This document shows positions 218 through 19,371 of a stretch of 20,000 nt of DNA, in pieces. The notes below the pieces were generated by a model that was not told the DNA's origin, did not search any database, and saw nothing but the letters and a program-made list of their open reading frames with translations. Numbering within the stretch: the first letter of the stretch is position 1; each line of letters opens with the position of its first letter. The position numbers and the translations under genes were made by a program. Source of the stretch: an uncultured virus (IMG/VR IMGVR_UViG_2816332408_000001). Lineage: Duplodnaviria > Heunggongvirae > Uroviricota > Caudoviricetes. The stretch lies in IMG/VR virus record IMGVR_UViG_2816332408_000001, positions 45,191 to 65,190 of that record; one strand, written 5' to 3'.

Positions 218-408
218 GCGTCCAAGTCTACATGAAAGACGTCCGCGCTGTCAAGCTCTGCTCGAGCGGCACGCGCGGGTTCTTCAAGCGTCACAATATG
301 GACTGGAACAAGTTCCTGGCCGAAGGTCTTCCCGAGGAGGACTTCCTTGCAACCGGCGATCATAACGCCTTGATGGTTGTGGAGGCAGCTCGTGGGCGGC
401 AAAAGTAA
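214..408 (+). CDS. Small conserved tail assembly protein/chaperone (64 aa)
   Basis: The GTG start at 214 overlaps the upstream stop. The sequence (DVRAVKLCSSGTRGFFKRHNMDWNKFLAEGLPEEDFLATGD) matches the C..G.R.FF.RH..DW..F...G.....L.ATGD pattern of the small gene found just before tail-tip genes in such phages. Confidence 0.75.
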   Translation: MSVQVYMKDVRAVKLCSSGTRGFFKRHNMDWNKFLAEGLPEEDFLATGDHNALMVVEAARGRQK

Positions 409-3088
409 AGCACAGACTATTGGATACAAGTATTACATCGGGATGCATTCCGTTGTATGCCACGGTCCAATCGACTTCGTAACGAAGTTCACTGTCGACG
501 ACCGCGTAGCGTGGGCGGGTGCTACCTCAGGCGGCTCCATCGGTGTGAGCGCCGAGTCCCTGTTTGGCGGTGAGTCGCGCGAGGGTGGTGTTAGCGGAAC
601 CGTCGATGTTATGATGGGGTGGCCGACGCAACTCCAGAACAGCTACCTCGTCGCGAAGCTAGGCAACCGGATCCCAGCCTATCGCGGTGTGGTCAGCATT
701 ATTCACCGTCAGTGCTACATGGGGAACAATCCCTATCTGAAACCGTGGCGCTACCGGGGGCAGCGCGTTCAGGTGCGCCAGGACGGACAGCCTCAGTGGA
801 ATCCGAACCGCGCAGGCATCCTTGTGCAGGCTGGTGCAAACCTCCCGAACAAGACCGCTGTCAACCTTGTGGCAACTTCGTTCGGCAGCGCACCCTCGAC
901 CGTTTACAGCCCGGGGCGTGCGGGTGTCATTCGTATCAGCAAGCCTCGAGCGGCTGCCAGCGGCGGGTTGCTCACCTATGACGCATGGAGCGCCTGGAAC
1001 AACGATGCAGGCATCGGTGGAGGTAACTCCCCGGTCCCAGGCCAGACCTGGACGAATCAGTTCCAGGTGCTGGCACGGAACGGCGCAGGCAGCTTCGTAA
1101 GCATCTTCAGCGGTAACGACCTCGGGATGGACCCGAACCTGTATGCAACGGCCGATGAAGCCTACGCAGCGGCGGACGCACTGCTCCCCATCACCTTCAC
1201 CGGGTGGGACGAGTATAAGGTCCAGGCAGCGTTCGATAACAACCCCGGCGACAACCGTGGCGGTCTGTCCCTGATCGTTGAGACCGGCAGCGGAACGATC
1301 GACCTTAACGGCGCGCACATCATCCGGGAATGCCTCACTGACCCCGATTGGGGCATGGGCTATCCCGAGAGCGATGTCGATGACGATTGGTTCGGTGCAG
1401 CAGCGAACACCATCTCAGCCGAGGAGCTGGGGATCTCCCTGCTATGGGACAAGCAGATCCTTATCGACGCCTTCATTCAGGAGATTGTGAAGCACATCGA
1501 CGCGGCGCTGTATGTGTCGCGCACGACGGGCAAGTTCGTGTTGAAGCTAATCCGCGGGGACTATAACCCCGACGACCTTATCACACTGGACGAGTCGTGC
1601 ATCTCCCGCATCGAAGATCCCTCGCGTCCCAGCTTCGGTGAGCTCACGAACAGCGTCACGGTCAACTATTGGGATCACCAGACCGGCAAGGATGCGTCGC
1701 TCACTGTAACCGACACCGCCATGGCGCTGGTTCAGGGTGCGGTCATCAACACCCCCGTTCAATATCCGGGGTTCAGCAACGCACGCAACGCGACCATCGC
1801 GGGGCAGCGCGATCTGCGGGCGCTCAGCTCACCGATGCTCAACTGCACCATCTATGTCGACAGCACCGCTGAAGACCTTAACGTAGGCGATGTGTTCAAG
1901 CTCAACTGGAGCAAGTGGGGCATCTATCAGCTTGTTATGCGTGTCACCAGCTTCGCGCTTGGCAACGGCAAGTCGAACCAGATCAAGCTGACGTGCGTTC
2001 AGGACATCTTCGATACGACGACAAAGACTGCGGTCGCTGAGCCTGGCACAGGCTGGGAAGACCCGTCGCAGCCCCCGGGGCCGTCCGTCGACAGCTTGGC
2101 GCAGGAGCTTCCCTATTACGAACTCGTTCAGACGGGTGGGCAAGCGCAGACCGACAGCAACCTCGTCAACAAGCCCGACAGCGGCTATGTCATGGGCGCT
2201 GCACCCCGCCCGACCGGCGGTATCAATGCGCGCATGTGGACCGATAGCGGTAACGGCTATGAATCCATCAACACCCTGGACTTCTGCCCCTACTGCGAAC
2301 TGACGGTGGCGGTAGGCAAGATGGAGACAGTGTGGTCAACCACGGGCGGTCTCGACATGGACACCGTCCTGGCAGGCCAGCACGCGCAGATCGGTGACGA
2401 GATTGTGCGGATCGACGCGGTGGACACGGTTGGCAACACCATCACCGTTGGGCGCGGTGCGCTCGATACCGTTCCGCAGGACCACGCCGCAACCGATTCA
2501 ATCTTCGTATGGGATCTTAACTACGGTGCCGACCCGACCGAATATGTTGCAGCAGAGGTCGTGGACGTTAAGATCCAGCCAGTGTCCGGTTCAGGCACGG
2601 TCGACCTCGGTCTGATCACCGAACGCACCGTTACCCTTGACGGTCGCGCCTGGCGCCCCTATGCTCCGGGCCAGTTTAAGGTCAACGGTCTGTATTACGA
2701 TACGAGCGTCGACTACAGCGGGGNGCTCACCCTCACGTGGGCGCATCGCGATCGGTTGGAGCAGACTGGTGGCACCATTGTTGACCACACCATGGGCGAC
2801 ATCGGTCCCGAGCCAGGCACCCTGTATCGCGTGCAGGGTTATGTCGACGATGTGCTTGTGCATACCGAGGACGACATCGCAGGAACGACCGCGTCGTGGG
2901 ATCCAGGTCTTGACGATGGGGTTGAGTCCGGCACGGTTCGCGTCGAGGTTCACGCCAAGCGCGACGGGGTGTATTCATGGCAGGCACCGTGGCATGAGTT
3001 CCTGTATGGCGCAGCCGGCCAGCGGGTAACTGAAGAGAATGACGGTCGTGTCACCGAGGGTGACGAACTACGGGTTACGGAGGACTAA
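392..3088 (+). CDS. Tail tip / central tail fibre protein (host specificity protein-like, ~898 aa)
   Basis: Likely GTG start at 392 with GGAGG at 381-385, giving MGGKSKAQTIGYKYY. It has conserved tail-tip blocks: LFGGESREGGVSG, PAYRG, NNPYLKPW, AHIIRECLTDPDWGMG, GKFVLKLIRGDY, GRGALDTVPQDH, LTWAHRDRL. One ambiguous base (N 2724) keeps the frame. Confidence 0.9.
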   Translation: MGGKSKAQTIGYKYYIGMHSVVCHGPIDFVTKFTVDDRVAWAGATSGGSIGVSAESLFGGESREGGVSGTVDVMMGWPTQLQNSYLVAKLGNRIPAYRGVVSIIHRQCYMGNNPYLKPWRYRGQRVQVRQDGQPQWNPNRAGILVQAGANLPNKTAVNLVATSFGSAPSTVYSPGRAGVIRISKPRAAASGGLLTYDAWSAWNNDAGIGGGNSPVPGQTWTNQFQVLARNGAGSFVSIFSGNDLGMDPNLYATADEAYAAADALLPITFTGWDEYKVQAAFDNNPGDNRGGLSLIVETGSGTIDLNGAHIIRECLTDPDWGMGYPESDVDDDWFGAAANTISAEELGISLLWDKQILIDAFIQEIVKHIDAALYVSRTTGKFVLKLIRGDYNPDDLITLDESCISRIEDPSRPSFGELTNSVTVNYWDHQTGKDASLTVTDTAMALVQGAVINTPVQYPGFSNARNATIAGQRDLRALSSPMLNCTIYVDSTAEDLNVGDVFKLNWSKWGIYQLVMRVTSFALGNGKSNQIKLTCVQDIFDTTTKTAVAEPGTGWEDPSQPPGPSVDSLAQELPYYELVQTGGQAQTDSNLVNKPDSGYVMGAAPRPTGGINARMWTDSGNGYESINTLDFCPYCELTVAVGKMETVWSTTGGLDMDTVLAGQHAQIGDEIVRIDAVDTVGNTITVGRGALDTVPQDHAATDSIFVWDLNYGADPTEYVAAEVVDVKIQPVSGSGTVDLGLITERTVTLDGRAWRPYAPGQFKVNGLYYDTSVDYSGXLTLTWAHRDRLEQTGGTIVDHTMGDIGPEPGTLYRVQGYVDDVLVHTEDDIAGTTASWDPGLDDGVESGTVRVEVHAKRDGVYSWQAPWHEFLYGAAGQRVTEENDGRVTEGDELRVTED

Positions 3089-3970
3089 ATGGCAGGGAAG
3101 TCAATCAGCCAGATGGAGGCGGCGGACCTGCCTCTGCTCGGCACAGAACTGGTCGAGGTTGCGGCGCTGGATCTTGCTATCAAGATCACAGCCACGACGA
3201 TCAGTGCAACCGCGTCCGACAACAGCTATAACGATTCCGGAAGCGGATTCGTTACGGCGGGGTTCGCACTGGGCGACCGCGTCAACGTGACAGGGTTCAC
3301 CGGGGATGTAGCGAACAACATCGTCTCGGGTGTTATCACTGCACTCACGACCGGCAAGATGACGATTGGTGGAACCGACGGTGACGTCATTGTTGACGAT
3401 GCGGCAGGCGAGTCTGTGACGATCACCAAGTGGACCAGCAAGGCAGCGCCCACCTCGGAGCTTGGTGGCGGAGGAGGGGGTGGCGGGGGNAGCGCCTGGA
3501 CTATCGACCTCATTCCGTTGCAGGCGGAAATGCCCGACTTCGCTTATGCGCAGTTGAACGGTCGCAATCAGCGTCCTGTGATCACCTTCGACACCACAAC
3601 TCAGGAGACCATCTTCTGGACCCGCGTCCTCCCCGCTGACGATCCGGGTGCGGGCATTGTGGTCACGCTTTACGTCGCAGCGCAGTCCGCCACCAGCGGA
3701 ACGATCGGCTGGGACGTAGCGTTCGAGCGTGTCGACGCAGGCGGGTTGGACGTGGACTCGGATAGCTTTGCGACCGCCAAGACGATCACCGCTGCCACGG
3801 TGCCCGGCACTGCTGGCGTCACCATGACGCAGACGGTCACGTTCAGCAACAGTGAGATCGATGGGCTGGTCGCGGGCGAGATGTTCCGCATCCGTATCCG
3901 TCGCGATGTCTCGAACGACACTGCAACGGGTGACGCCCATCTGCTCATGGTCAATCTGCGGGGAGCCTAA
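3089..3970 (+). CDS. Tail fibre / receptor-binding-associated structural protein (293 aa)
   Basis: Starts immediately after the tail-tip stop with RBS GGAGG. It has a fibre-type N-terminus (MAGKSISQMEAADLPLLGTELVEVA), T/G/S-rich beta-strand content, a poly-Gly linker (~3465-3490) and a distinct C-terminal domain. Confidence 0.7.
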   Translation: MAGKSISQMEAADLPLLGTELVEVAALDLAIKITATTISATASDNSYNDSGSGFVTAGFALGDRVNVTGFTGDVANNIVSGVITALTTGKMTIGGTDGDVIVDDAAGESVTITKWTSKAAPTSELGGGGGGGGXSAWTIDLIPLQAEMPDFAYAQLNGRNQRPVITFDTTTQETIFWTRVLPADDPGAGIVVTLYVAAQSATSGTIGWDVAFERVDAGGLDVDSDSFATAKTITAATVPGTAGVTMTQTVTFSNSEIDGLVAGEMFRIRIRRDVSNDTATGDAHLLMVNLRGA

Positions 3971-4745: not shown

Positions 4746-6980
4746 TTATGCAGCTTCAGCCGGAAGTGCTGCAATGTCCCGCAGCATACGCACCGCCTCA
4801 TTGATATACCAGTCGTGATCCACGTCTTGAGGAACGACCATGTTATCATTGAAGGCCATGCAGGGCATCGCGCCGTCCGAGCGAGGCACCTTGTTCCCAC
4901 TGAGCGCATAGACCAGCTCACCGGGGACGTCCTTGGCGTAATACCAGCGGACAGTCTTGCCAACGAACTCAGTCTCGCCTGGCACCGCTAGGCGCTCGCA
5001 CGCGATGCGATACGCCTTCTCGGTTGTGATAGCGTAGCGACCGACCGCGTCATAGCTACCCTTCTCGACCCAAGACCCCTCAGCGAACGGGGTGTAACCC
5101 GCCCGGTCGATAAGCTCCTCTTGCGAGTCATGCGCGGGGACGTTGCTGCTCCACACCTTCACCGCGCCACCCTTCACCGACCGCACCGTGACGAACTTGC
5201 GAATGTCATTGGCTGCGCGAATGGTGTGGTCAAGCGGGGTGCCCTTCGTCAGGAACGCCTCAACAGCCTCGACGCAGATCGTTGTCGTCGGGTTCTTGTG
5301 CAGGCGCATGGCGAGGTTCTTGCTGTCACTCCATGGGTTGGCGTAGGCACCCTTGGACTTAATGCCGTCGGGGATCTCCAGCCAGCTGTTCGTTGCCTTG
5401 TCGAACTTCTGCTTGACCGCGATGTAGTTATTCACGTCACGCGAATAGAGCGACAGGTAGCGGGTCTCTTCTGTTTTGTATTGTGTGATCCGCTCCCATT
5501 CAGCAACGATCCAGTTGAACAGCTCCATATTGTTCCGCGGACACTTAATAACGATGCCGTCGGTATTGGCGCTGACCACATGGATGCCGCGCATTTCCAG
5601 CATCTCGATCAGTAGCAGGATGCTCAGCTGACCCGTCAGTGTCGTCTGGATCAGGAAGTTCGGTGCATAGAGGATGGAATACTTGCTGCCGAACTTGCCG
5701 AACGACCCGTTGATGACAATCTTGAGCGACTCAGCGACGGGCTTGTTCCCGTCCGCTTTCGCCTTCAAGCGCCGCTCAACGATGGNGCGGTAAACGTGCA
5801 GGAACTCCGGACCCAAGTGCTCTGGATACATGCCCTGATTAAGGATGATGCGCGGGTAGAACGACTCGACGTCCTTGTCGATCATAATGTAGTTCGCGTC
5901 GGTGTGGTGGGCGACCGTGCTTTCACTGCTATGCAGCCCGCCAATCCCCATGCGGTAAACCGACCCCATGATGTCCAACTGGAGGTCTTTAATCTCCTCG
6001 GGCATCGCAATGGAGCCAGTGTAGTCAACGACGAACTTCGCCTTGGCGACAACCCCTAGCGCCCACTGCATGAGCGGGGAGTTGAACTTCATCCACGGGG
6101 GCACCTGATAGCGGTATGTGGTGCCTACCTCGATCTCAGGACGCTTGGGGCGAATCCCCGTGCGGCGCTGTAGCTCGGCGGACATAACCGCTTCAGCGAT
6201 CTGCGCGTCCGACTTGGACCGCAAGTCAACCTTGTATTCGTTCGACAGGGTATAGCGGAGCTCTATCTGCTCCTTGAGCGTCTCCCGTAGGAGAGCGGTG
6301 TTGTGCGTGTCGTTGACGCAATACCAGCGCACGATCGCAATCTGGTGCGGGCTTAGGATGGTGGCAGGGTGGAACGGCAAGTCCTGCATCTTCTTGGCGT
6401 GCATCCGTCCTGCATAACCCTTCAGGGAGGCGAACAGGGGTGCAACCTCGATAAGATCGATATGATCCACCTTCAGGTTGCCACCCTTGGCGTGCTTGCG
6501 GCGCACATCCTGCCCGCGCATCTCCTCCACAATGATCATGTCGGAGCACTTCTTCAGCTGCGAGCAGCTAAGGCCAGCAACCGCCATCTCGCACATGGGG
6601 ATGTCGTAGTTGATACCGTTGAAGGTGACGCAAGTGTATGTCTCGAGCATCCAGCGGAGCTTGCGGGTGTCAAGCGGGGGCAACCCATCACCCATCTCCA
6701 CCAACGCAATCTTGCCTGTGACGAGGTTCGTGAACACGACTAAGAAGTAGTTCCCATAACACTCGACGTCGGTGAGCATTTCCTCACGACGCTGCCGCGC
6801 TATGGCAAGCTCTTCGATGGACATAAACTGGACCGGGAACTCCAGCGCCTCTTTCAGGCCTGGGAGGTAGTCCGGTCGGAGCCAGGTTGGCTCGGGTGGG
6901 ACACGCTTGAGCTTTTCAGCTTTGGGCGCCTTGGGTGGCGGGGTGTCATCCCAAAAGAATCCGACTGCATCGTTACGCAT
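4746..6980 (-). CDS. DNA polymerase, family B, with 3'-5' exonuclease domain (744 aa)
   Basis: ExoI DVECY, ExoII FNGINYD, ExoIII YCVND; polymerase motif A DVESFYP, motif B KIVINGSFGKFG, motif C ANTDG, then RDVNNY and KSKG. RBS GGAG upstream. Confidence 0.95.
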   Translation of the reverse strand: MRNDAVGFFWDDTPPPKAPKAEKLKRVPPEPTWLRPDYLPGLKEALEFPVQFMSIEELAIARQRREEMLTDVECYGNYFLVVFTNLVTGKIALVEMGDGLPPLDTRKLRWMLETYTCVTFNGINYDIPMCEMAVAGLSCSQLKKCSDMIIVEEMRGQDVRRKHAKGGNLKVDHIDLIEVAPLFASLKGYAGRMHAKKMQDLPFHPATILSPHQIAIVRWYCVNDTHNTALLRETLKEQIELRYTLSNEYKVDLRSKSDAQIAEAVMSAELQRRTGIRPKRPEIEVGTTYRYQVPPWMKFNSPLMQWALGVVAKAKFVVDYTGSIAMPEEIKDLQLDIMGSVYRMGIGGLHSSESTVAHHTDANYIMIDKDVESFYPRIILNQGMYPEHLGPEFLHVYRXIVERRLKAKADGNKPVAESLKIVINGSFGKFGSKYSILYAPNFLIQTTLTGQLSILLLIEMLEMRGIHVVSANTDGIVIKCPRNNMELFNWIVAEWERITQYKTEETRYLSLYSRDVNNYIAVKQKFDKATNSWLEIPDGIKSKGAYANPWSDSKNLAMRLHKNPTTTICVEAVEAFLTKGTPLDHTIRAANDIRKFVTVRSVKGGAVKVWSSNVPAHDSQEELIDRAGYTPFAEGSWVEKGSYDAVGRYAITTEKAYRIACERLAVPGETEFVGKTVRWYYAKDVPGELVYALSGNKVPRSDGAMPCMAFNDNMVVPQDVDHDWYINEAVRMLRDIAALPAEAA

Positions 6981-7031: not shown

Positions 7032-7181
7032 TTAACGGTTGTTGGCAGAACGCTTCACATGCTTCTTCGTCTCCTTCATAGTGCCGTTGCAGGTCGGACA
7101 ACCCTTGTGGTCACCCTTGCCAGCGCGATACAGGTTGCCGCATGTCATGCACTTGACTTTGCGTCCTGATGTTTTCGTCAT
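7032..7181 (-). CDS. Small basic zinc-ribbon protein (49 aa)
   Basis: Not in the ORF track; read manually as MTKTSGRKVKCMTCGNLYRAGKGDHKGCPTCNGTMKETKKHVKRSANNR*. It has two CxxC pairs, and its ATG overlaps the clamp gene stop (ATGA). Confidence 0.75.
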   Translation of the reverse strand: MTKTSGRKVKCMTCGNLYRAGKGDHKGCPTCNGTMKETKKHVKRSANNR

Positions 7182-8197
7182 CTGGTTGATACTCCGGTGG
7201 CGCTGAATTGCTGCCCCTCGAAGTGGCTGCGCATACCAATGATGGCACCGCGCATGACCCCGCCGAAGAACATCGCAGGCTCGGGGTATAGCGTGAAGTC
7301 GGCCTGCTCCACAACCCCGTTCAGCAGCGCAAACATCGCAATGTTATAGCATCCAACGAACTCTAGCCCGTCAACCTCAAAGGATGCACCCTCCTCACGC
7401 TCAACCGTGTCCTCGTGGGTCGTGAGCAGTCCGTTGTTGATATAGATGCGGTTGCTCCCGTCCGACAGCGCCTTCAGCTTGTCGATTGCGGTGAACAGCT
7501 CCTGAGGAATGGGAACGGGGGCGCTGGGCACGTTCAGGATCTTCTTGATTAGCTCCAACGGCCACTCAATCCCGAGTAGCTGGCTACGGATCCACCGACC
7601 GTCGTTATAGTGGAACGTGATGGAGTTCCCCGCGATCTGCGCACCGATGGGCGCTTCGTCGACGCGCAGCATTTCCTTGATGCACGCCTTGGGGATGTTG
7701 ATCTGCTTGGGGAAGGGTGCTGCCAGCCAATACTCAACGACGCAAGTGTTGTTCGTAGCGTAGGCTGACTGACCGTCGAGCAGGATACCAGCCGACCACG
7801 GACGAGAGGCGTCGTTACCGATGAACGGATACATCAACTTGAACGCCTTCAGCATGGTCTCGCCATCGAATTGCAGGGGGTCGCCCTCGGGTCCGACGTG
7901 CGGGGTCTCACCGTCCACTAGCTGAGCAAACCCCGTGAACTTGCCGCTCTTGATGCGCAGCTTGCCGCCGGGGGTCGTCGACAGGATAATCGGTTCGCTA
8001 TCGTCGCACTGCTGAATCGCCTTCACAAGCTGGTCTGCCTTGGGGCAACAGTTGATGTCGAAGGGGATTGGGCTGCTGATCGCCAGCGTGCCGTTATAGG
8101 AACGCACCGTGCCGTTCTCGATGCGGAAGTGCGTCATCGCAGGCAGCAAGTCCTTCTTGGCGACTGCACCCTGGACGAACTTCAATTCCTTCAGCAT
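7178..8197 (-). CDS. DNA polymerase processivity factor, beta-clamp (DnaN)-like (339 aa)
   Basis: The N-terminus resembles DnaN (LKFVQGAVAKKDLLPAMTHFRI), the second domain has a DnaN-like NDASRPWSAGILL...YATN segment, and the length fits three repeated domains. It lies next to the DNA polymerase. Confidence 0.75.
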   Translation of the reverse strand: MLKELKFVQGAVAKKDLLPAMTHFRIENGTVRSYNGTLAISSPIPFDINCCPKADQLVKAIQQCDDSEPIILSTTPGGKLRIKSGKFTGFAQLVDGETPHVGPEGDPLQFDGETMLKAFKLMYPFIGNDASRPWSAGILLDGQSAYATNNTCVVEYWLAAPFPKQINIPKACIKEMLRVDEAPIGAQIAGNSITFHYNDGRWIRSQLLGIEWPLELIKKILNVPSAPVPIPQELFTAIDKLKALSDGSNRIYINNGLLTTHEDTVEREEGASFEVDGLEFVGCYNIAMFALLNGVVEQADFTLYPEPAMFFGGVMRGAIIGMRSHFEGQQFSATGVSTR

Positions 8198-8373
8198 TCG
8201 TGCGCTCCATACTTGTCCACGAGCTTCTTGATCATCGGGGACTTCCAGGTTTTACCGTAACGCTCGATGACGAGCCCTAGCTGCATTCTACGGTGAATGT
8301 GGCCGTGTCGCAAGCTAGTTCTGCAGACATAGAGCAAAGTATTCAGCTTCAGGCGCCTCGCGTCGGGGCGCAC
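8191..8373 (-). CDS. Hypothetical basic protein (~60 aa)
   Basis: Fills the gap between dpdA and the clamp gene. The GTG start at 8373 overlaps the dpdA stop (TAGTG) and the 3' end overlaps the clamp start. No recognisable motif; start uncertain. Confidence 0.5.
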   Translation of the reverse strand: MRPDARRLKLNTLLYVCRTSLRHGHIHRRMQLGLVIERYGKTWKSPMIKKLVDKYGAHEC

Positions 8374-9335
8374 TAGAAGAGCTCCGCGCTGCGCACCCTG
8401 AACGTCGGGCTGGCGTTGGCATTCATAAGGCTGTTGACCACACCGAACGCCCAAAGGTTGTATGCAGCGCGTGACTCATAGATCTGGCTTAGGCGTTCGT
8501 AGGTGAACCCGTTGTCCTCTAGCGTCTTATAGACGTAGTCACATTCAACTTGCGACAAGGTTGTGGCGTGCTGTCCCCAATCGTGCCTCGACGGGGACTT
8601 CTCTGAGACCGACATTGGCATAGCAGGGTTCTTGGCGCTAATGCCCGGCATGATAATACTGCCGAACGCTGCGCTCTGGATCCAGGAGGACGAGTCGCAG
8701 CTATACCACGGATAGGCCTCCATGATCGGAACGGCAGTGATGCCGAAGCCATGCACCTTAACCCTTGGGCGCCCTGCACCGTCAGTGAGGTATTTGTCCC
8801 ACATACGGTCGAGCCAGACCATTAGCTGGGCGGTGCTGCTCCCGACCATGCCACCGAGCGTGATATAGTCGTATTCGTTCACATACCGCTCGAGGTAATG
8901 CTCGGGTTCCCCAGCGTGGAAGCATGGGAGGGGGCGCCAGTCGAGACCGTAGCGTTCCCGGAACTGGCGCTCCATCTCTTGCTGGTTCCGCCACGTCTCG
9001 TCTGCGTCACCGATACCGTCGAGCACCGACGCCATCATGTTGCCCGGTCCCTCACCGCGTATGATATCCCAATTGCGGACGATGTAGTCCACATAATCGC
9101 TCACCTCCAGCTTGATGCCCAAGGTGTATGCGGAGAACGCACCGCTATCGAGGAAGACCTGAGCGCCGAGGCGACGCATGTGGTCAACATAGGATTGCTT
9201 GCCAACGTAGTGCCACGACTCAAGGATGTGCGGGAGACCATTGACGATCTCCCGCTCCCGGTCGTTCAGCTTCACGTAGCGATTCATGCCCTCCATATAC
9301 GAGTTCGTATAGACGGCAGCCATGTAGATATCCAT
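8373..9335 (-). CDS. dpdA: DNA 7-deazaguanine transglycosylase (TGT-fold, phage DpdA-type) (320 aa)
   Basis: TGT-barrel motifs FLDSGAFSA, LDGIGD, PCFHAGE, LGGMVG, VHGFG and SCDSSSW. It lacks the CxCxxC zinc site of canonical tRNA TGTs and sits directly downstream of folE/queD/queC/queE. Confidence 0.85.
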   Translation of the reverse strand: MDIYMAAVYTNSYMEGMNRYVKLNDREREIVNGLPHILESWHYVGKQSYVDHMRRLGAQVFLDSGAFSAYTLGIKLEVSDYVDYIVRNWDIIRGEGPGNMMASVLDGIGDADETWRNQQEMERQFRERYGLDWRPLPCFHAGEPEHYLERYVNEYDYITLGGMVGSSTAQLMVWLDRMWDKYLTDGAGRPRVKVHGFGITAVPIMEAYPWYSCDSSSWIQSAAFGSIIMPGISAKNPAMPMSVSEKSPSRHDWGQHATTLSQVECDYVYKTLEDNGFTYERLSQIYESRAAYNLWAFGVVNSLMNANASPTFRVRSAELF

Positions 9336-9352
9336 GACGCTACGTTACCCCA

Positions 9353-10240
9353 TTAGCGCGCGAGCTGCAAGAACTCATTGCGGACAGCGGGGTCATCCTT
9401 GAACAGACCCCGAAGGGCACTGGTCGACGTCTCCGAGCCTTGCTTGCAGATCCCTCGGGACTCCATGCAAAGGTGGCGGGCGGTGATAACGACACCGCAG
9501 CCCAGCGCGCCAAGGTGATCCATGATCGCGTCCGCAACCTGACACCCGAGCCGCTCCTGCACTTGCAGACGCTTGGCGTAGATGTCCAACAGACGCGACA
9601 GCTTCGACAGGCCAACGATCTTCTTGTTCGGGAGATAGCCGATGGTCGCCGTGCCGAAGAACGGTGCCATATGATGCTCGCAGTGCGTATAGAAGGGGAT
9701 GTTCTTCACGACGACCATCTCGTCCACACCCTCGGCGCCGTCCTCGAACGTCTTCAGGATGTCGGCGGGGTCCTTGTCATATCCGCTGCACCATTCCTTC
9801 CACGCCTTGGCAACCCGTGCGGGGGTTTCCGCCAGACCGCCTCGGTCGGGGTTCTCGCCGACGTATTGCAGCAGGCGAACGATATGGTCCTCGATGCCCT
9901 TGGACCCGTTGCCTTCCCACGGCCAGACGACCCATGCGTCTCCGTGCGCCCAGCTACGCTTGTCGATAAGCGCGTAGAACGGCTTGTCGGGGAAGCGTTC
10001 CATCGTGCGACCCGTGTCGATTAGGTCATCGATGATAGCGTCCGCCTTGGTCCAGTCCTCTTCCACAACGAACACCGAGTCGTCATCGAGCGCGAACACT
10101 GCGAGGCGCGCCGGGATGCCACCAGTGGGCACCGCGTAGAGCTTGATCGGCCGTGTAGTCGGGAAGTCGGTGAGCAGCTTGTTCTGAACCTCCCCAGCCA
10201 GATCGAGGACGCTCATCGTATCATAGGTCTGCTCAGCCAT
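9353..10240 (-). CDS. folE: GTP cyclohydrolase I (FolE) fused to an N-terminal type I phosphoribosyltransferase domain (295 aa)
   Basis: Real start is ATG 10240 (RBS GGAG, overlapping the queD end). The C-terminal ~180 aa have FolE motifs GLAETPARVA, CEHHMAPFFG, GLSKLSR, RLQVQERL, HLCMESRG. The N-terminal ~110 aa have PRTase motifs AVPTGG, IIDDLIDTGRTM (PRPP loop) and WVVWPWE. Confidence 0.92.
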   Translation of the reverse strand: MAEQTYDTMSVLDLAGEVQNKLLTDFPTTRPIKLYAVPTGGIPARLAVFALDDDSVFVVEEDWTKADAIIDDLIDTGRTMERFPDKPFYALIDKRSWAHGDAWVVWPWEGNGSKGIEDHIVRLLQYVGENPDRGGLAETPARVAKAWKEWCSGYDKDPADILKTFEDGAEGVDEMVVVKNIPFYTHCEHHMAPFFGTATIGYLPNKKIVGLSKLSRLLDIYAKRLQVQERLGCQVADAIMDHLGALGCGVVITARHLCMESRGICKQGSETSTSALRGLFKDDPAVRNEFLQLAR

Positions 10241-10703
10241 TGTTCTCTCCGTAGTAAATGGCGCTGTTGGCGCCGTGTTCGCGAACTTCGACAGACACAA
10301 GGCGCAAGCCCCGGATGTCGCACTCGAGGGGCATTGCATCGCCCAGCCACGTATCGACGCGGTCATAGACGAACTTGGCGAACCCTTCGCACCCGACGAA
10401 CGGGAGCACAAGGATCGGGGTGAACCCGCACTTCTCGTAGAGGGCTTGGAAGTCCGCCAGGAACGGGTCGTGCTCCGCCAGGATCATCCGATGGTCGAAG
10501 TTGTCCACCAGCCATTGCTTGATGGGCTTCAACCCGCCGAAGTCGATCACCCAATTGTCCCGGTCGAGGGTGTGGGCACTGAACGTCAGCTTGAACGACA
10601 GGGGGTAGCCATGGGGGTTGCAGCAATGGCTGAGCGCCTTCGGCTGGCGGAACGTAGCGGCGAGCCCGAGGTTGTGGTCATAGGTTTTCGTGACTGAATA
10701 CAC
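10233..10703 (-). CDS. queD: 6-carboxy-5,6,7,8-tetrahydropterin synthase (QueD) (156 aa)
   Basis: T-fold motifs HCCNPHGY, VIDFGGLK, FDH, EGFA and VREHGANSAIY, plus cluster context. Confidence 0.9.
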   Translation of the reverse strand: MYSVTKTYDHNLGLAATFRQPKALSHCCNPHGYPLSFKLTFSAHTLDRDNWVIDFGGLKPIKQWLVDNFDHRMILAEHDPFLADFQALYEKCGFTPILVLPFVGCEGFAKFVYDRVDTWLGDAMPLECDIRGLRLVSVEVREHGANSAIYYGENNG

Positions 10704-10705
10704 GG

Positions 10706-12118
10706 TTAGCTATCCTTCCGAGCATACTGAAGGGGATCCTCCAGTCCGTTAATGGTATAGGCGGTCTTGCGCATAAAGCAAGGGCCGCAAGTGCCGCAGT
10801 GGACGGGTCCGCTGCGATAGCAGCTCCACGTTAGCCCCATGGGCGCCCCGAGCTGCTCGCCGAGTGCGACGATCTCGTGCTTCATCAGGTTGCCGACAGG
10901 CATGACCACACTGAGTCGCTTCCCGTCGCCCACCGCGAACGGCAACATCTCGTTGAAGCGGTTAATGAACTCAGGCTCGTTGTCGGGGTAGGCACCCGCT
11001 TCCTCGAGGTTGTTCCCCAGCCCGATCAGGTCGAACCCTTTGGCTTCCGCGTAGGCAGTCGCAAGGGAGAGCATAACGAGGTTCCGGGCAGGAACCCATT
11101 CATGAGCGAATTCAGCACCCGCTTCGCCTCCAGCGATTTCGCTGTCCGCCTGGAGTAGCGGGCTGTCTTCTTTGTCATAGATCCCCATCGGCAGGACGTG
11201 GAGCGGAACTTGCATAGCGTTGGAGACCGCCATGATAGCAGCATACTCAGGTGACTCAGCGCGCGAGCCATATTGGAAGTGCAGCAAGTGGACGTCGCAC
11301 CCGTCGGCCTGTAGGGCCTTTGCAGCGACGACGCTGTCCATGCCACCGCTACAGACGACCAGCGCCTTTCGCCCCTGTAGCACGGCGGGATCGAGGCGGT
11401 GCGCGTGCATGGGGGTGAACCGCCAGGCGCTGTAGGGTGGCACCATCTGCGGCGCGAACCCTGCCGGGAAGTAGTCCTTGGACGACGCGAAGAAGCACGC
11501 TCCGTCGAGCCACGCATACCAGATCGGACGATAGTTGCACGCCGCGAACACGACACCCGGATAATGGTCGTGCGTTGCGAGGATCGCATAGCTTCCTTTC
11601 AGGTGTGACACCATGTTGAAGAACGTGGCGCTGAGCTCTGTCTCGGTAGCGGTGTCGTTCGTCTCGTCCCGCGCAAGGAACTCAGCAATCGCAGCACTGT
11701 CGACGCCGGTTGGCAGCTTCTGCCCCGCGAAGTGATTGCGCAGTTCGTGATCGTTGGCGATCGTTCCGTTGTGAACGACGTTCCACCCGCCGGCGCGATA
11801 GGGTTGCTGGTCGAACTCCCGCTTCTCCGCAACGTATTCGGTCGTCGGCTCTGCGCGGAGGTTGCCGATGATACCGCCCTGATGGATAGGGTGCATCTCG
11901 TCGAAGAAATCGTTGCGACCGTGCAAGCTATTGCGTTCGACAGACTTGCGCTCGAAGTTGTATCCGGTCGAGTGCCCTCGGTCCTCCTGGACATGGTATC
12001 CCCAGCCGTCCCGCCCCCGCTCACCCGACGCGACCATAATCTGATTCATGATCTGATTCGTTCGGGTGACGTGCATAGGCGACATGCCCCATACGAGGCA
12101 TCCAAAGATTGCGCACAT
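10706..12118 (-). CDS. queC: Glutamine amidotransferase (Ntn class II)-QueC fusion, Gat-QueC (470 aa)
   Basis: N-terminal nucleophile Cys2 (MCAIFG) with RGRDGWG, HNGTIAN and VDS. The C-terminal QueC domain has the PP-loop SGGMDS, VPARNL, YPD and the Zn site TWSCY..HCGTCGPC. Confidence 0.93.
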   Translation of the reverse strand: MCAIFGCLVWGMSPMHVTRTNQIMNQIMVASGERGRDGWGYHVQEDRGHSTGYNFERKSVERNSLHGRNDFFDEMHPIHQGGIIGNLRAEPTTEYVAEKREFDQQPYRAGGWNVVHNGTIANDHELRNHFAGQKLPTGVDSAAIAEFLARDETNDTATETELSATFFNMVSHLKGSYAILATHDHYPGVVFAACNYRPIWYAWLDGACFFASSKDYFPAGFAPQMVPPYSAWRFTPMHAHRLDPAVLQGRKALVVCSGGMDSVVAAKALQADGCDVHLLHFQYGSRAESPEYAAIMAVSNAMQVPLHVLPMGIYDKEDSPLLQADSEIAGGEAGAEFAHEWVPARNLVMLSLATAYAEAKGFDLIGLGNNLEEAGAYPDNEPEFINRFNEMLPFAVGDGKRLSVVMPVGNLMKHEIVALGEQLGAPMGLTWSCYRSGPVHCGTCGPCFMRKTAYTINGLEDPLQYARKDS

Positions 12119-12119
12119 A

Positions 12120-12836
12120 TTATTCGACTCCGATGTATTTGTGAACCTGGAGCTGGAGGATGTAGCCGTGCGCTAAGCTCGACTCGACCGCCGCAGCGGT
12201 GTTCCGCGCGTTGATGGACGTGTTCTTGTCGTCCTGAGGCTGGATGTAGNCCAGTCCGTCCCAGCCGTAGGGCGGTCGCGCGGGGTAGGGGTTGGAGCGG
12301 TGCCCCAGCGCGTTCTTCGGCAGACCGTCGGTGTGCTCGTCCCCTGCCTGCACGACATACTTCAGGGCGCACGCGGCCTCCAGCGCCAGCGGGTTGAGCT
12401 TGCCCGTCTTGGGGCTCACAACAAGATACGCACCCCGCCGCGCACCGATATCACGGTTCCAGGGCAGCATCGGCGGGTTCATGGTGCCGTTGCTTTCGAC
12501 CTGCACGAAGAACCCGTTATGGATGAGCATGTCGATCAGCTCACCGATGTGCTGCCTGAACGGTTCGCCGCCGGTGATGACCACAAGCCCAGGGTCCGGG
12601 CGCTGCCATTCGTCACGGACCGCTAACACGATTGCGCGCGGTTCCAGGATCAGTCTGTGGGAGGTGTAGTCAGTGTCGCAGGACGGACACTGGAGGTTGC
12701 ATCCCGCTAGGCGGACAAAGACGCAAGGGGTGCCGCAGAAAGGGCCCTCGCCCTGTATCGTCTTGAAGATGCTGTGGATCTGGAGCGTCCCCTCATAGGA
12801 GGGTTCACGCTTCTCGATGGGTTGCTGGTTTATCAC
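12120..12836 (-). CDS. queE: 7-carboxy-7-deazaguanine synthase, radical SAM (QueE)
   Basis: Motifs FKTIQGEG, RLAGCNLQCPSCDT (CxxxCxxC), ITGGEP, ESNG, VSPK, QVHK. The GTG at 12836 has GGAGG just upstream; an alternative ATG is at 12863. Confidence 0.93.
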   Translation of the reverse strand: MINQQPIEKREPSYEGTLQIHSIFKTIQGEGPFCGTPCVFVRLAGCNLQCPSCDTDYTSHRLILEPRAIVLAVRDEWQRPDPGLVVITGGEPFRQHIGELIDMLIHNGFFVQVESNGTMNPPMLPWNRDIGARRGAYLVVSPKTGKLNPLALEAACALKYVVQAGDEHTDGLPKNALGHRSNPYPARPPYGWDGLXYIQPQDDKNTSINARNTAAAVESSLAHGYILQLQVHKYIGVE

Positions 12837-12863
12837 GGTTCCTCCGGAGGTGGCTAGACGCAT

Positions 12864-12943: not shown

Positions 12944-13504
12944 TTACGCCTGCGGCGCTTCCGGGGCGACCGGCGGAGCGGCGGGAGCTTCCGGAGCCGC
13001 AGCGGGCTTCGGACCTTCCACGCGGCCGGTGACACCGAAGAACTTCCGCCAGCGGGCGTATTCGGCGCGGACGTTCGCCTCGTTCAGGCCCTTGGCCTTG
13101 GCGATCTCCATCGACTCGGAGATGGAAGCGGGCGAACCGTTCTTGGCGGAGACCTCGTCGAAGATCGCCCAGGCCTGACCGCAGAGACCGTCGGGCTTCG
13201 GACGGCGGATGCCGTTCTGTTCCGGCTGACGGGCAGCTTCGCGGGCAGCAACGGCGTCGGCCTTGGCCTTCTCCTTGGCTTCCTGCGCAGCGACCTTCTC
13301 GGCCTGCTTCTTCTCGGCGGCAGCCTTCTTCTCGGCTTCCTTGGCTTCCTTGGCAGCGGTCTTCTCCGCTTCCTTCTTGGCCTTGGCTTCCGCAGCCGCC
13401 TGCTTCTTGGCGGCGGCCTCGTCGGCCTTCTTCTGCGCGGCGGCCTGCTTGGCAGCTTCCGCTTCGGCAGCGGCGGTTGCCGCAGCTTGCTCTTCCGTGC
13501 TCAT
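12944..13504 (-). CDS. Ala/Lys/Glu-rich coiled-coil protein with a C-terminal helical, possibly DNA-binding domain (186 aa)
   Basis: ATG 13504 with RBS GGAG. It has a long AAEAKAKKEAEK-type low-complexity helix, then a compact domain (GLCGQAWAIFDE...RAEYARWRKFFG) and a Pro/Ala tail. It has its own promoter and terminator. Confidence 0.8.
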   Translation of the reverse strand: MSTEEQAAATAAAEAEAAKQAAAQKKADEAAAKKQAAAEAKAKKEAEKTAAKEAKEAEKKAAAEKKQAEKVAAQEAKEKAKADAVAAREAARQPEQNGIRRPKPDGLCGQAWAIFDEVSAKNGSPASISESMEIAKAKGLNEANVRAEYARWRKFFGVTGRVEGPKPAAAPEAPAAPPVAPEAPQA

Positions 13505-13544
13505 TTCAATCTCCATCAAATGGTTGCCCGATATGGACAATGTT

Positions 13545-13573
13545 GTGTTAGCATTCCGAAAGGGCGAATGCAA
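13545..13573 (-). promoter_or_regulatory. Putative sigma70-type promoter with an overlapping inverted repeat
   Basis: On the - strand: TTGCAT, 17-bp spacer, TAACAC with an extended TG. The inverted repeat GCATTC-N9-GAATGC (13551-13571) spans the spacer. Confidence 0.55.
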
Positions 13574-17658: not shown

Positions 17659-18615
17659 TTACGCCTGAGGCGCGGCCCACGGGGGAGCGGCACCAGCAGC
17701 GGCAGCCGCCGCAGCAGGGTCCGGAGCACCCGGCGCCGCCGGTGCAGCCGCAGCAGCTTCGGCAGGGGCGGCACCGCCGGCCCAGGGCTGAGCAGCGGGT
17801 GCGCCACCGAACGGGCTGTCCGCGAGCGCGGCAGCGGGTGCGCCGGCCCAGGGCGAGTCAGCCGCAGGCGCCGCCGGTGCTGCCGGGGCAGCGGGTGCGG
17901 CAGGCGCAGCGGGGGCAGCCGGAGCGGCGACCGGCGCGGGATACAGCTCGATGAGCTTCACGGTCTCATGGACCTTGTCGCCCTTCCAGTGATACGCCGG
18001 GTTCGTCGGGTGCAGTGCCCAGCCATCCGCTTCTGCGGCTGCCTTCGGGTCGTGCGCGACGGGCGCTGCGGGAGCAGCGGGTGCCGCCGGTGCAGCAGGC
18101 GCCGCGGGAGCGAAGCCTGCGGGTGCAGCCGCAGGAGCGGCAGCGGCAGTTCCGAAGCCAGCGGGAACACCACCAGCCGCCGGAGCAGCGGCAGCGCCGG
18201 CGCCCACGGTTTCGACCGCCTCGTTGATGTTCTTATACGAGATGATCTCGTTCTGGTCTTCGTAGTTGTCGTCGCCCTTGCGGATCTTGACCTTGATCTT
18301 CAGCGGGATGCCGTGGAGCTGCTCGCTGTTCGCGATGTGCAGCACGCCGACCGCGTGACCGATGGCGGAGAGTTGCTTGAGCGCAATCTCCTGGGCGGTC
18401 GCATTCGCGTTCTTGATGTTCAAGCGCGCGAACAGCTTGCGATTGGCGTATTGCCCGTCGATCACCGCAAAGCGGACCTGCAGATAGCTGCCGGCGCCGT
18501 CCTTCGTGGGCTTGATCTCGGACTCGTCCATCTTGGCGTTATACCAGCCGGCCGGGATCACATCGAACCCGGTATCCGGTTCCACCTGAGTGGCATCGAA
18601 GTTCAGTTGTGCCAT
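17659..18615 (-). CDS. Single-stranded DNA-binding protein, DUF669-like OB fold with long Pro/Ala-rich tail (318 aa)
   Basis: The N-terminal domain FDVIPAGWYNAKMDESEIKPTKDGAGSYL...GQYANRKLF...NEI is typical of DUF669 phage SSBs. It lies directly downstream of the Sak4-like ATPase, with RBS AAGGA. Confidence 0.85.
   Translation of the reverse strand: MAQLNFDATQVEPDTGFDVIPAGWYNAKMDESEIKPTKDGAGSYLQVRFAVIDGQYANRKLFARLNIKNANATAQEIALKQLSAIGHAVGVLHIANSEQLHGIPLKIKVKIRKGDDNYEDQNEIISYKNINEAVETVGAGAAAAPAAGGVPAGFGTAAAAPAAAPAGFAPAAPAAPAAPAAPAAPVAHDPKAAAEADGWALHPTNPAYHWKGDKVHETVKLIELYPAPVAAPAAPAAPAAPAAPAAPAAPAADSPWAGAPAAALADSPFGGAPAAQPWAGGAAPAEAAAAAPAAPGAPDPAAAAAAAGAAPPWAAPQA
17690..18200 (-). repeat. Low-complexity (PAA)n coding repeats in the SSB tail
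   Basis: Degenerate 9-nt repeats encoding APAAPAAPAA in two main tracts flanking a ~40 aa unique segment. Confidence 0.85.
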
Positions 18616-18645
18616 GGTATGCTTATTCCTTTCATCGGCGGCGGA

Positions 18646-19371
18646 TCAAGCCGCCATTATTTTTGCAAAAATCGCGCTGAGGATTGGAGGTTCGATCGAA
18701 GCCAGCGCGCCACTCCGATCTTTCGCTACATACTGCAGATCAGGCTGAGTCTGTAGGAAACGATATGACTCCCCTTGGGGCGTCTTGTTGATGCCGAGGC
18801 GGAACACCTCGTCGAAGAAGTAAGGCAGCTTGTGCCCCAGCTTGGCGCCAGGCATGGACGGCGCATACTTGACCACACCGCTCATCTCGTCCTTCATCGG
18901 TTCCATCTTGGCGGTGATGAGGACGTGCTTGTTCGGTATGTCACGGAAGCTGCGGATGGTCGTTTCCATCTTCTCGATGAGCTCACCATACGCCTGGCGC
19001 GGGTCTTTCACCTGCCGCTTGGCGTTGTTGAGGATAACCTCAGCGATTTCTGACGCGCTGTCCATCCCGATGGTGTGGAAGCCCTTCGCCTCGTTGGACT
19101 CCGTCACCCAGCGGTGCGCTTCCGCGAGGTCTTCCACCGTCTTGATCTCGATGATGGGCATGTTATAGGTGATATGCGGATTCCCGACGCCATACAGACG
19201 TTCGAGGTTCGCCTTGCGCAGCGACAGCGCACCGGACTCGTTGCTGATCATCAGCGGAACGGGTGCGGTCGCCAGCAGCATGGTCTTTCCCACACCGGCC
19301 TCACCGTATGTGAGGACCTTGACGCCTCCTGCGCTTGTCGCCTGTTCGGCGGTCGTGAACACCATTGCCAT
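18646..19371 (-). CDS. Sak4-like AAA ATPase / single-strand annealing recombinase (241 aa)
   Basis: Walker A YGEAGVGKT, ESG, Walker B IGMDSASE, PYFFDEVF and AKDRSG. The start ATG 19371 overlaps the ligase stop; it is followed by the SSB and Cas4-like genes. Confidence 0.85.
   Translation of the reverse strand: MAMVFTTAEQATSAGGVKVLTYGEAGVGKTMLLATAPVPLMISNESGALSLRKANLERLYGVGNPHITYNMPIIEIKTVEDLAEAHRWVTESNEAKGFHTIGMDSASEIAEVILNNAKRQVKDPRQAYGELIEKMETTIRSFRDIPNKHVLITAKMEPMKDEMSGVVKYAPSMPGAKLGHKLPYFFDEVFRLGINKTPQGESYRFLQTQPDLQYVAKDRSGALASIEPPILSAIFAKIMAA

Follow-up and report, generated by a model that had tools for sequence, protein, structure and literature searches.

A phosphoribosyltransferase-like domain joined to FolE

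What does a phosphoribosyltransferase (PRT)-like domain do on the GTP cyclohydrolase I (FolE) of a phage that carries genes for 7-deazaguanine modification of DNA? The question is raised by a 20,000-nucleotide stretch, hereafter the window, which covers positions 45,191 to 65,190 of the uncultured virus record IMGVR_UViG_2816332408_000001. Its minus strand encodes a PRT-FolE fusion protein of 295 amino acids (aa) at 9353–10240, and all parts of this protein are given below in window coordinates on that strand. An earlier note, made from the sequence alone, had read the open reading frame (ORF) as a Gpt-like PRT joined to an intact FolE and had considered guanine salvage, deazaguanine nucleotide synthesis and allosteric sensing as its possible roles. 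Profile comparison and structure modelling predict that the N-terminal 113 residues are a minimal PRT, derived from xanthine-guanine phosphoribosyltransferase (XGPRT, Gpt) and tethered to FolE. The conserved residues suggest that the domain is probably an active PRT working on a guanine-like base, either guanine or a 7-deazaguanine; that it is specifically a guanine-salvage PRT feeding FolE is the reading we put forward, tentatively.

The N-terminal domain (aa 1–113; 9902–10240) was assigned with a family profile, AlphaFold2 (AF2), VIA structural comparison and Foldseek, and the assignment becomes significant once relatives are added through the profile, the model and the fold scan. Searches with hidden Markov models gave a divided answer: the family profile finds PRTs significantly, and the single sequence stays below the threshold of Pfam Pribosyltran. 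Alone, the domain reached PDB entry 1vdm at E 2.5 and NCBIfam at E 0.83 and matched nothing in PHROGs, and a profile that retained FolE columns missed PRTs (1vdm, E 5.6). In the PDB, a profile built from 53 N-terminal domains only matched 1vdm with an E value of 8.3e-11 and the XGPRT chains of Yersinia and E. coli with values of 5.2e-10 to 7e-9; the XGPRT alignments are full length and collinear, from residue 1 through the PWE/PWD segment, and 1VDM matches in two stretches. The Pfam PRT threshold is passed by relatives at loci L053 (33.7 bits) and L049 (26.4 bits) and by stand-alone proteins at L065 (66.0 bits) and L060 (43.9 bits).

Structure prediction likewise models the domain as a PRT fold, with a predicted local distance difference test score (pLDDT) of 91.8 for the AF2 model built from 44 sequences. 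In a scan of 48,161 solved chains, the top match was Yersinia XGPRT (6kp5; VIA Z 10.3, root-mean-square deviation 2.9 over 107 residues), followed by a Neisseria protein of unknown function bound to guanosine tetraphosphate (ppGpp) (5vog; Z 10.0), Sulfolobus hypoxanthine-guanine-xanthine PRT (Z 9.8) and a Pyrococcus purine PRT (Z 9.6). The nine chains at Z ≥ 8 comprise seven purine PRTs, the uncharacterised 5vog and PyrR (Z 8.6), a regulator of the pyrimidine operon with a PRT fold. Foldseek agrees, its best matches being 6-oxopurine PRTs, and among predicted viral structures (BFVD) the best match to the window domain is a protein of Cellulophaga phage phiST (E 4.1e-05). The PRT identity and the Gpt likeness that had been proposed from motifs are thus borne out both by the fold (Z 10.3) and by the profile (5.2e-10 to 7e-9). 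In the AF2 model of the whole protein (pLDDT 93.6; predicted template modelling score 0.76), confidence is high in both domains and lower at the junction, residues 111–120 (pLDDT 76).

A single ORF without an internal stop does link this domain to FolE. It opens with an ATG at 10240, preceded at 6 nt by GGAGAG, and closes with the stop codon at 9353–9355. A longer, TTG-started frame (to 10411) runs into queD; the aligned homologues start at the fusion's ATG, and M1 is invariant in their alignment. The FolE half (aa 114–295; 9356–9901) is intact, as the earlier note held: Pfam PF01227 matches it at 231.7 bits (cut-off 27; E 5.4e-69) over profile positions 1–178 of 179, PDB FolE chains match at 1.9e-66, and three NCBIfam FolE models pass their cut-offs, among them NF006825 (234.6 bits; cut-off 174) and TIGR00063 (210.9 bits; cut-off 181.6). 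The active-site C-E-H-H lies at aa 187–190 (9671–9682) and the second zinc cysteine, C258, at 9467–9469. Across 66 full-length homologues no variation occurs at C187, E188, H190 or C258, and conservation reaches at least 90% at H189 and H256; these positions correspond to the zinc and catalytic Cys/His residues numbered in E. coli FolE.

Conserved ligand positions and a missing loop

The motifs named at first sight are all found: the pyrophosphate (PPi) loop VPTGG at aa 37–41 (10118–10132), the motif that binds phosphoribosyl pyrophosphate (PRPP), AIIDDLIDTGRT, at aa 68–79 (10004–10039), and WVVWPWE at aa 103–109 (9914–9934), aligned with W-I-E-Q-P-W-D of Gpt. Conservation was counted over 123 distinct fused homologues, down to about 23% identity to the window. 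In the PPi loop, P38 and G41 are present in all 123 and G40 in 119. Within the PRPP motif, which in the window reads IIDDLIDTGRT, D71, D72, G77 and T79 are each invariant (123/123), as is serine or threonine at position 76, and D75 is kept in 118/123. Further on, K94 (9959–9961), aligned with the lysine of the Gpt 'AKP' segment, is lysine in 107/123, and W103, P107, W108 and E109 are conserved in 122, 122, 121 and 123 of the 123 sequences, respectively. From the alignment to E. coli Gpt, we take the kept positions to correspond to contacts with PPi, with the ribose hydroxyls and Mg, with the 5'-phosphate, and with the N7, O6 and ring of the purine. K94 would presumably be the O6 contact of 6-oxopurine PRTs and W103 the base-stacking tryptophan of Gpt, and D75 aligns with the aspartate that contacts purine N7, an atom missing from 7-deazaguanines. 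The counts indicate that residues at ligand positions are under strong purifying selection across the 123 fused sequences.

The same 123 homologues all lack flexible loop II, a segment of about 18–27 residues that normally lies between strands 2 and 3 and closes the active site in every solved relative. The spacing from G41 to D71 is 29 residues in the window versus 48 in E. coli Gpt, and the GG-to-DD spacing is 20–35 in 122/123 fused sequences versus 46–56 in full-length Gpt-type proteins. In HMMER alignments, Gpt carries an 18-residue insertion at the loop II site and a 10-residue insertion in the hood, which is itself short in the clade of the window (8 residues between K94 and W103 versus about 17–18 in Gpt). 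An earlier caveat that the domain is short was therefore well founded, loop II being wholly and the hood partly absent. The universal loss of this lid means either that loop II is dispensable to a type I PRT or that an enzyme fold has turned sensor.

In the second case the domain would be non-catalytic: having lost its lid, it would bind PRPP, guanosine mono- or triphosphate (GMP/GTP), guanine or (p)ppGpp and tune the activity or assembly of FolE to the purine supply. We consider this quite unlikely, even though the loss of loop II in all 123 sequences, with the ligand-binding residues staying, is the usual pattern of an enzyme that becomes a binding module. The fold matches also lend themselves to it, since the second-best, 5vog, was crystallised with ppGpp and the PRT-fold regulator PyrR is among them, as does the full-length model with its two confident domains and weaker junction. 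To our knowledge, no bacterial FolE is regulated by such a domain. The distribution of loop-less and loop-bearing relatives, described below, bears on the choice.

Distribution of the fusion

Among isolated phages, the N-terminal domain matches 34 records, out of 391 that match the FolE part; their hosts are Pseudomonas (18), Vibrio (7), Stenotrophomonas (3), Sphingomonas (2), Variovorax (2) and Xanthomonas (2), and the fusion-bearing phages include Nipunavirus NP1/PaMx25, VpKK5 and MMDA13. None of the 34 records carries a PRT annotation: annotated features read GTP cyclohydrolase or hypothetical protein, and some records are unannotated. Two scans of IMG/VR yielded 65 and 79 loci, 144 in all, with 8 contigs in both, and the two domains lie in one ORF in 61/65 and 78/79 of them (139/144). 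A stop or frameshift between the domains, raised earlier as a concern, was not found in the window, and the conservation of the one-ORF fusion across loci excludes such an artefact. The exceptions are a locus cut by the contig end (L058), one in which folE lies 4 nt off in a different frame (L128), two of identical sequence with a separate PRT gene just after folE (L060 and L062), and one whose PRT is encoded separately, with queD on one side and folE on the other, in the gene order of the window (L065).

These counts bear on the least flattering explanation of the domain, that it is a decaying or purely structural appendage, such as an oligomerisation or solubility tag left by an ancestral fusion, or else an artefact of assembly or frameshift. 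The sub-threshold Pfam match of the window domain and the loss of loop II would fit it. The ligand-binding residues are invariant over the 123 sequences, the fold is confidently predicted by AF2, the fusion recurs in the 34 isolated-phage records and 139/144 IMG/VR loci, and in a library of 1.84 billion representatives the domain profile matches 5510 proteins at E ≤ 0.001 (1656 at E ≤ 1e-10), which together make this explanation highly improbable.

The company of the fusion is equally regular. A survey of how often the PRT co-occurs with DpdA, the DNA guanine transglycosylase, had been suggested, and a DpdA homologue was present in the flanks of 126/144 related IMG/VR loci; at least one of DpdA, QueE, QueD and QueC was found within the flanks of 141/144. 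The 18 loci without a DpdA match are mostly short. Among 185,579 cellular species genomes, the loop-less form was seen in 5 of the 40 matches listed; four of these five are joined to a FolE or FolE-like domain and the fifth stands by itself, and the remaining 35 matches listed look like ordinary Gpt-type proteins or partial matches. Given this scarcity of loop-less forms among the cellular matches listed, the PRT-FolE architecture appears to be essentially viral.

Chromosomes of Dehalococcoidia metagenome-assembled genomes (L163:5950-6858, L166:5917-6924 and L167:5920-6840) encode a loop-less PRT fused to a FolE-like domain in which C-E-R-H or C-E-K-H stands in place of C-E-H-H. The 6-kb flanks of these fusions showed neither a que nor a DpdA homologue, and the fusions may represent a cellular paralogue with altered or lost cyclohydrolase activity.

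Unfused relatives and the nucleotide-level alternative

Members of the same family also stand apart from FolE. Loop II is complete in the separate PRTs of L060 and L065 and contains the S-S-Y segment, as in E. coli Gpt. Searched against isolated phages, the L065 protein matched 41 records, namely from phages of Campylobacter (14), Pseudomonas (11, jumbo phages), Cellulophaga (5), Flavobacterium (4), Brevundimonas (2) and Synechococcus (1), two unnamed phages, and two records from Escherichia/Salmonella that are very short and possibly host DNA. Six unfused phage PRTs match the stand-alone relative at tblastn E values of 6e-13 to 8e-4. In Flavobacterium phage immuto_2-6A (gp211), the gene order is queD, queE, PRT, folE, DpdA, DpdN, a thymidylate-kinase-family gene and queF; in Brevundimonas phage MaInes (MaInes_00780), it is ribonucleotide reductase (RNR), deoxynucleoside monophosphate (dNMP) kinase, folE and PRT; and in Synechococcus phage BUCT-ZZ01 (UTS52039), it is queE, PRT, one ORF, queD and folE. 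The PRT of Pseudomonas phage PA5oct (gp163) immediately precedes a QueE-like gene, and in Campylobacter phage CP220 (YP_009169316) a radical-SAM gene lies two genes after the PRT. An unfused PRT is accordingly located at most two genes from folE or queE-like genes in these five phage lineages. In the sixth phage, phiST (CGPG_00045), the PRT belongs to a nucleotide-metabolism region (RNase H, PRT, dNMP kinase, one ORF, RNR), with no que gene among the annotated neighbours. The immuto_2-6A protein is loop-less, with 26 residues from GG to DD; CP220 (37) and PA5oct (38) are intermediate, and phiST (50), MaInes (56) and BUCT-ZZ01 (46) are full length.

A kinase gene adjoins the PRT in phiST (L203 8989-13085) and lies one gene away, across folE, in MaInes (L206 2660-7474), and RNR is near the PRT in both. 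The thymidylate-kinase-family gene of immuto_2-6A (L204 12627-13151) is situated inside the que cluster. Judged by its predicted functions, the gene company in these three phages is a neighbourhood for the conversion of a base to nucleoside mono- and diphosphates and on to the deoxynucleoside diphosphate (base to NMP to NDP to dNDP).

The loop-less form, too, is found without FolE. Among the best 149 library representatives, the FolE domain is complete in 31, partial in 33 and absent from 85. Many of the FolE-less forms are proteins of 140–170 aa that combine the loop-less domain with two helices, one of them alignable with the first FolE helix and bearing an invariant arginine; examples are L149:8001-8447, P0067, P0078 and P0158. 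Their interpretation as fragments was rejected for L149 and L150, which are complete genes with their own stops; others may be fragments. The L149 gene lies in a phage replication module, next to genes for ThyX, ligase, AAA_24, an HNH protein, helicase, an RNase T-type exonuclease, nucleoside 2-deoxyribosyltransferase, a YfbR-like 5'-deoxynucleotidase and Pol III alpha, and neither a que gene nor folE was detected within 16 kb. Since this gene stands alone, without que genes, the loop-less module has a life outside FolE.

For the sensor hypothesis these copies cut both ways. That stand-alone loop-less homologues retain the first FolE helix is in its favour; that loop-less forms exist as separate genes (gp211 of immuto_2-6A), and in L149 with no folE in reach, is not, and the unfused and FolE-independent copies as a whole disfavour a purely FolE-allosteric role. 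Loop-bearing Gpt-like enzymes at the same genomic position (L060, L065 and MaInes) suggest selection for catalysis. Because family enzymes with the loop share this position, and because the residues of chemistry are kept as well as those of binding, the domain of the window is likely active.

If it is active, the neighbourhoods above raise the question of its base. A 7-deazaguanine PRT resembling TubE would join 7-carboxy-7-deazaguanine (CDG), 7-cyano-7-deazaguanine (preQ0) or a related base to PRPP to give a deazaguanine nucleotide; the phage polymerase would incorporate this product after its phosphorylation and reduction, which would amount to a pre-replicative route alongside DpdA or in its stead. 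We regard this as possible but doubtful. TubE has been demonstrated to join CDG to PRPP and is encoded alongside homologues of FolE, QueD and QueE, and ToyH has been proposed to act alike, according to the text on these pathways in PMC6112128. The earlier statement that the FolE-QueD-QueE-QueC-DpdA route includes no PRT hence holds for the textbook route and fails more widely: TubE uses CDG and PRPP in the tubercidin pathway, as that text describes, and unfused Gpt-like PRTs are already annotated near folE or queE-like genes in five phages. The queE gene beside the PRT in BUCT-ZZ01 and the QueE-like one in PA5oct, the position of the PRT two genes from a radical-SAM gene in CP220, and the NMP-kinase and RNR genes near it in phiST and MaInes, fitting the base to dNDP sequence, all favour a deazaguanine substrate, and the shortened hood of the window clade could open the base pocket.

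Complete substitution of guanine, the usual outcome of nucleotide-level routes, points the same way. CP220, phiST and immuto_2-6A are the three completely substituted phages, assigned DpdA3, in the main text of Cui 2023 (PMC10516641), and a Gpt-like PRT gene is present in all three phages reported there with complete replacement. The same text cites the detection of the 7-amido-7-deazaguanine (ADG) nucleoside in CP220-infected cells and states that DpdA3 activity could not be demonstrated in E. coli. In our searches, the Pfam TGT model found no DpdA in MaInes, PA5oct or BUCT-ZZ01, nor in phiST or CP220 (5/5), although the latter two are reported with DpdA3; the immuto_2-6A DpdA3 protein as a query matched only CP220, and not MaInes, PA5oct or BUCT-ZZ01.

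Several observations argue against a deazaguanine substrate. At the position aligned with the N7 contact, 118/123 sequences retain the aspartate, the domain is fused to the first enzyme of the pathway and not to an enzyme that releases the base, and a loop-less homologue occurs in L149 without any que gene in 16 kb. With a DpdA homologue in 126/144 flanks, a base-exchange route is already available, and Cui 2023 argue, in the main text, that all known cases are post-replicative (PMC10516641). The likeness to TubE and ToyH, moreover, is drawn from their published description. That phage mini-PRTs in general, both fused, as here, and unfused (CP220, phiST, immuto_2-6A), are deazaguanine PRTs of a pre-replicative route leading from base through NMP, NDP, dNDP and dNTP to DNA is in our estimation rather unlikely.

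A possible guanine-salvage loop

Guanine is favoured as the base because the relatives are XGPRTs, the aspartate at the N7-contact position is kept, the fused partner consumes GTP, and guanine is freed by DpdA. We hypothesize that DpdA would exchange guanine in phage DNA for a 7-deazaguanine base, releasing one free guanine per exchange, and that the PRT domain would join this guanine to PRPP, giving GMP. Kinases would convert GMP to GTP, which the FolE half of the same polypeptide would consume in the first step towards the next deazaguanine base. The net input of the loop would be PRPP; the pathway would stay supplied, and a competitor base would be removed from the DpdA site. Of this scheme we infer catalysis without loop II, guanine as the base and the closure of the loop. 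The pairing of FolE and PRT is also seen in unfused form, in either order: the PRT gene comes first in immuto_2-6A and L065, and folE does in MaInes and L060. The L149 gene, loop-less and without a que gene, fits general purine salvage better than a deazaguanine- or FolE-specific role. The presence of a PRT in completely substituted phages counts for salvage as well, since guanine release would be greatest there. So do the DpdA homologues in 126/144 flanks and the kinase and RNR genes near the PRT in phiST and MaInes.

A number of points weigh against guanine salvage. Activity may be low or lost where loop II is absent. Position 39 of the PPi loop is arginine in 108/123 homologues and threonine in 8/123, the window among them. 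The window domain alone scores 13.8 bits against Pfam Pribosyltran (PF00156; cut-off 26.3; E 0.037), and matches in the motif only. Two kinase reactions separate GMP from GTP, and the fusion therefore does not channel its product directly; hosts, moreover, normally own Gpt or Hpt. In the literature, we found no assay of any member of the PRT-FolE family. Finally, the folE pairing, the DpdA company, the link to complete substitution and the kinase and RNR neighbours fit a deazaguanine PRT equally well.

Gene cluster and genome context

The window is the final 20 kb of a 65,190-base virus record, complete by CheckV, and its minus strand, on which all genes of this paragraph lie, is a replication and DNA-modification module. 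The DpdA gene (8373–9335; PHROG phrog_887, E 4.3e-85; no match in a Pfam search) begins 17 nt downstream of the PRT-FolE fusion. On the other side, queD (10233–10703; Pfam PTPS, E 1.2e-14) ends in an 8-nt overlap of its stop with the fusion start, and is preceded by Gat-QueC, a glutamine amidotransferase fused to QueC (10706–12118; Pfam QueC 5.4e-52 and GATase_7 4.3e-08), and by the radical-SAM enzyme QueE (12120–12863; Pfam Radical_SAM, E 1e-06, 29.4 bits against a cut-off of 29.5), a homologue of which is present in 132/144 related loci. DpdA, FolE, QueD, Gat-QueC and QueE are thereby all present and contiguous at 8373–12863 (PHROG, Pfam). Further upstream of QueE in the direction of transcription are genes for a helicase, a Cas4-type exonuclease, a single-stranded DNA-binding protein (SSB), an AAA_24 ATPase and a ligase. 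Downstream of the fusion and in the same orientation follow a sliding clamp (7178–8197; phrog_947) and a DNA polymerase (4746–6980; phrog_1252), whose weak B-family PDB matches (E 3e-4 to 6e-4) are in line with the B-family polymerase assumed in the earlier note.

Taken by its genes, the cluster belongs to the first phage group of Hutinet 2019, characterised in the main text by DpdA with FolE, QueD and QueE plus Gat-QueC and predicted to contain 2'-deoxyarchaeosine (dG+) (PMC6884629); for the window, too, the modified base is a prediction from genes. The nearest isolated phage is Sphingomonas phage MMDA13, with 72.5% identity across the whole fusion protein, followed by Nipunavirus-like Pseudomonas phages.

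Other features of the record were noted in passing. Its last 1500 bases (window 18501–20000, record 63691–65190) are 100% identical to record bases 634–2133; the linear record therefore carries a terminal duplication, either because a circular or permuted genome was assembled with an overlap or because the repeat at the termini is real. At 19371–19970, the ligase ORF corresponds to the C-terminal part of a 311-aa ligase at record 1504–2439. Paralogous Lys/Ala/Glu-rich proteins are encoded at window 12944–13573 (minus strand), directly upstream of queE in the direction of transcription, and at record 11480–12127 (plus strand), and both match phrog_18634, 21588, 11298 and 17772, PHROGs of unknown function. 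The SSB-like protein (17659–18615, minus strand; phrog_13350/6015) has a long, low-complexity, Ala/Pro-rich C-terminal half with repeated PAAPAA units. The genome contains 18 isolated N bases; the resulting X residues fall within 377–3088, 3089–3970, 4746–6980 and 12120–12863 and affect a tail protein, the downstream ORF, the polymerase and QueE, and the PRT-FolE ORF is free of N. Further nucleotide-pool genes of the record encode a ThyX-type thymidylate synthase (record 2738–3430; Pfam Thy1, 6.5e-31) and a MazG-like pyrophosphatase (record 5000–5860; PHROG 3.9e-22; Pfam MazG below cut-off, 20.0 bits against 22). A PHROG match to 'nucleotide kinase' in the same genome (L068:984-1490) was rejected as a GMP kinase, as Pfam finds no kinase family in it and gives a sub-threshold DUF3310 match alone (18.2 bits; cut-off 24).

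Novelty and implications

The term 'phosphoribosyl' is absent from the main texts of Hutinet 2019 (PMC6884629) and Cui 2023 (PMC10516641), and the MMDA13 paper names Gp31 simply FolE. A literature search combining deazaguanine, FolE or DpdA with phosphoribosyltransferase, with supplementary tables and the study of Campylobacter phages by Crippen et al. 2019 outside its scope, left the fusion undescribed; the single paper found on DpdA and a PRT concerns actinomycete clusters. Within that search we found no description of a PRT-FolE fusion, of a loop-less 'mini-PRT' subfamily or of a systematic occurrence of Gpt-type PRTs in phage deazaguanine clusters. The unfused genes are on record as 'phosphoribosyl transferase' in RefSeq, and their role is not. 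Both domain families are textbook material; their fusion is a new variant.

The link between the PRT and deazaguanine phages proves more general than had been recognised from the window: at least seven unrelated phage lineages combine the deazaguanine pathway with a Gpt-type PRT, which is a FolE fusion in the Nipunavirus-like group and a protein of its own in the rest, among them every phage reported with complete guanine replacement. Guanine recycling, if true, would explain how modification is sustained at a demand estimated to be comparable to the GTP pool of the cell, as well as the removal of the competitor base. Deazaguanine nucleotide synthesis, if true, would reopen the question of pre-replicative versus post-replicative insertion.

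Comparison with known systems

In fold, the domain resembles Gpt/XGPRT (E. coli 1A95/1NUL, Yersinia 6KP5) and archaeal purine PRTs (1VDM, 4Z1O), with Z from 10.3 to 9.2. It shares with Gpt the PPi loop, the DD-x-x-D-T/S-G-x-T PRPP motif and the lysine and tryptophan positions, and differs in being about 40 residues shorter, in lacking loop II and the C-terminal tail of Gpt, in its fusion to FolE and, in the window clade, in its short hood. PRT folds serve regulation elsewhere: the effector domain of Bacillus subtilis PurR has this fold, and PRT-fold regulators bind PRPP or nucleotides. Unlike the phage protein, PyrR and PurR join the fold to RNA- or DNA-binding functions and not to a pathway enzyme. 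The unfused phage PRTs of immuto_2-6A, phiST, CP220, MaInes, BUCT-ZZ01 and PA5oct belong to the same family as the fused domain and are encoded as separate genes.

TubE (tubercidin) and ToyH (toyocamycin) offer a parallel in gene company, each being a purine-type PRT of a 7-deazapurine pathway whose genes include FolE, QueD and QueE homologues, as described in the corresponding text of PMC6112128. Compared by that description, they differ from the phage fusion: they stand alone, measure 194 aa, serve the secondary metabolism of actinomycetes and come from clusters that lack DpdA. Within the cluster of the window itself, a counterpart is Gat-QueC, in which a core enzyme of the preQ0 pathway has likewise gained an accessory activity by domain fusion, and which is already described and linked to dG+ formation in the main text of Hutinet 2019 (PMC6884629).

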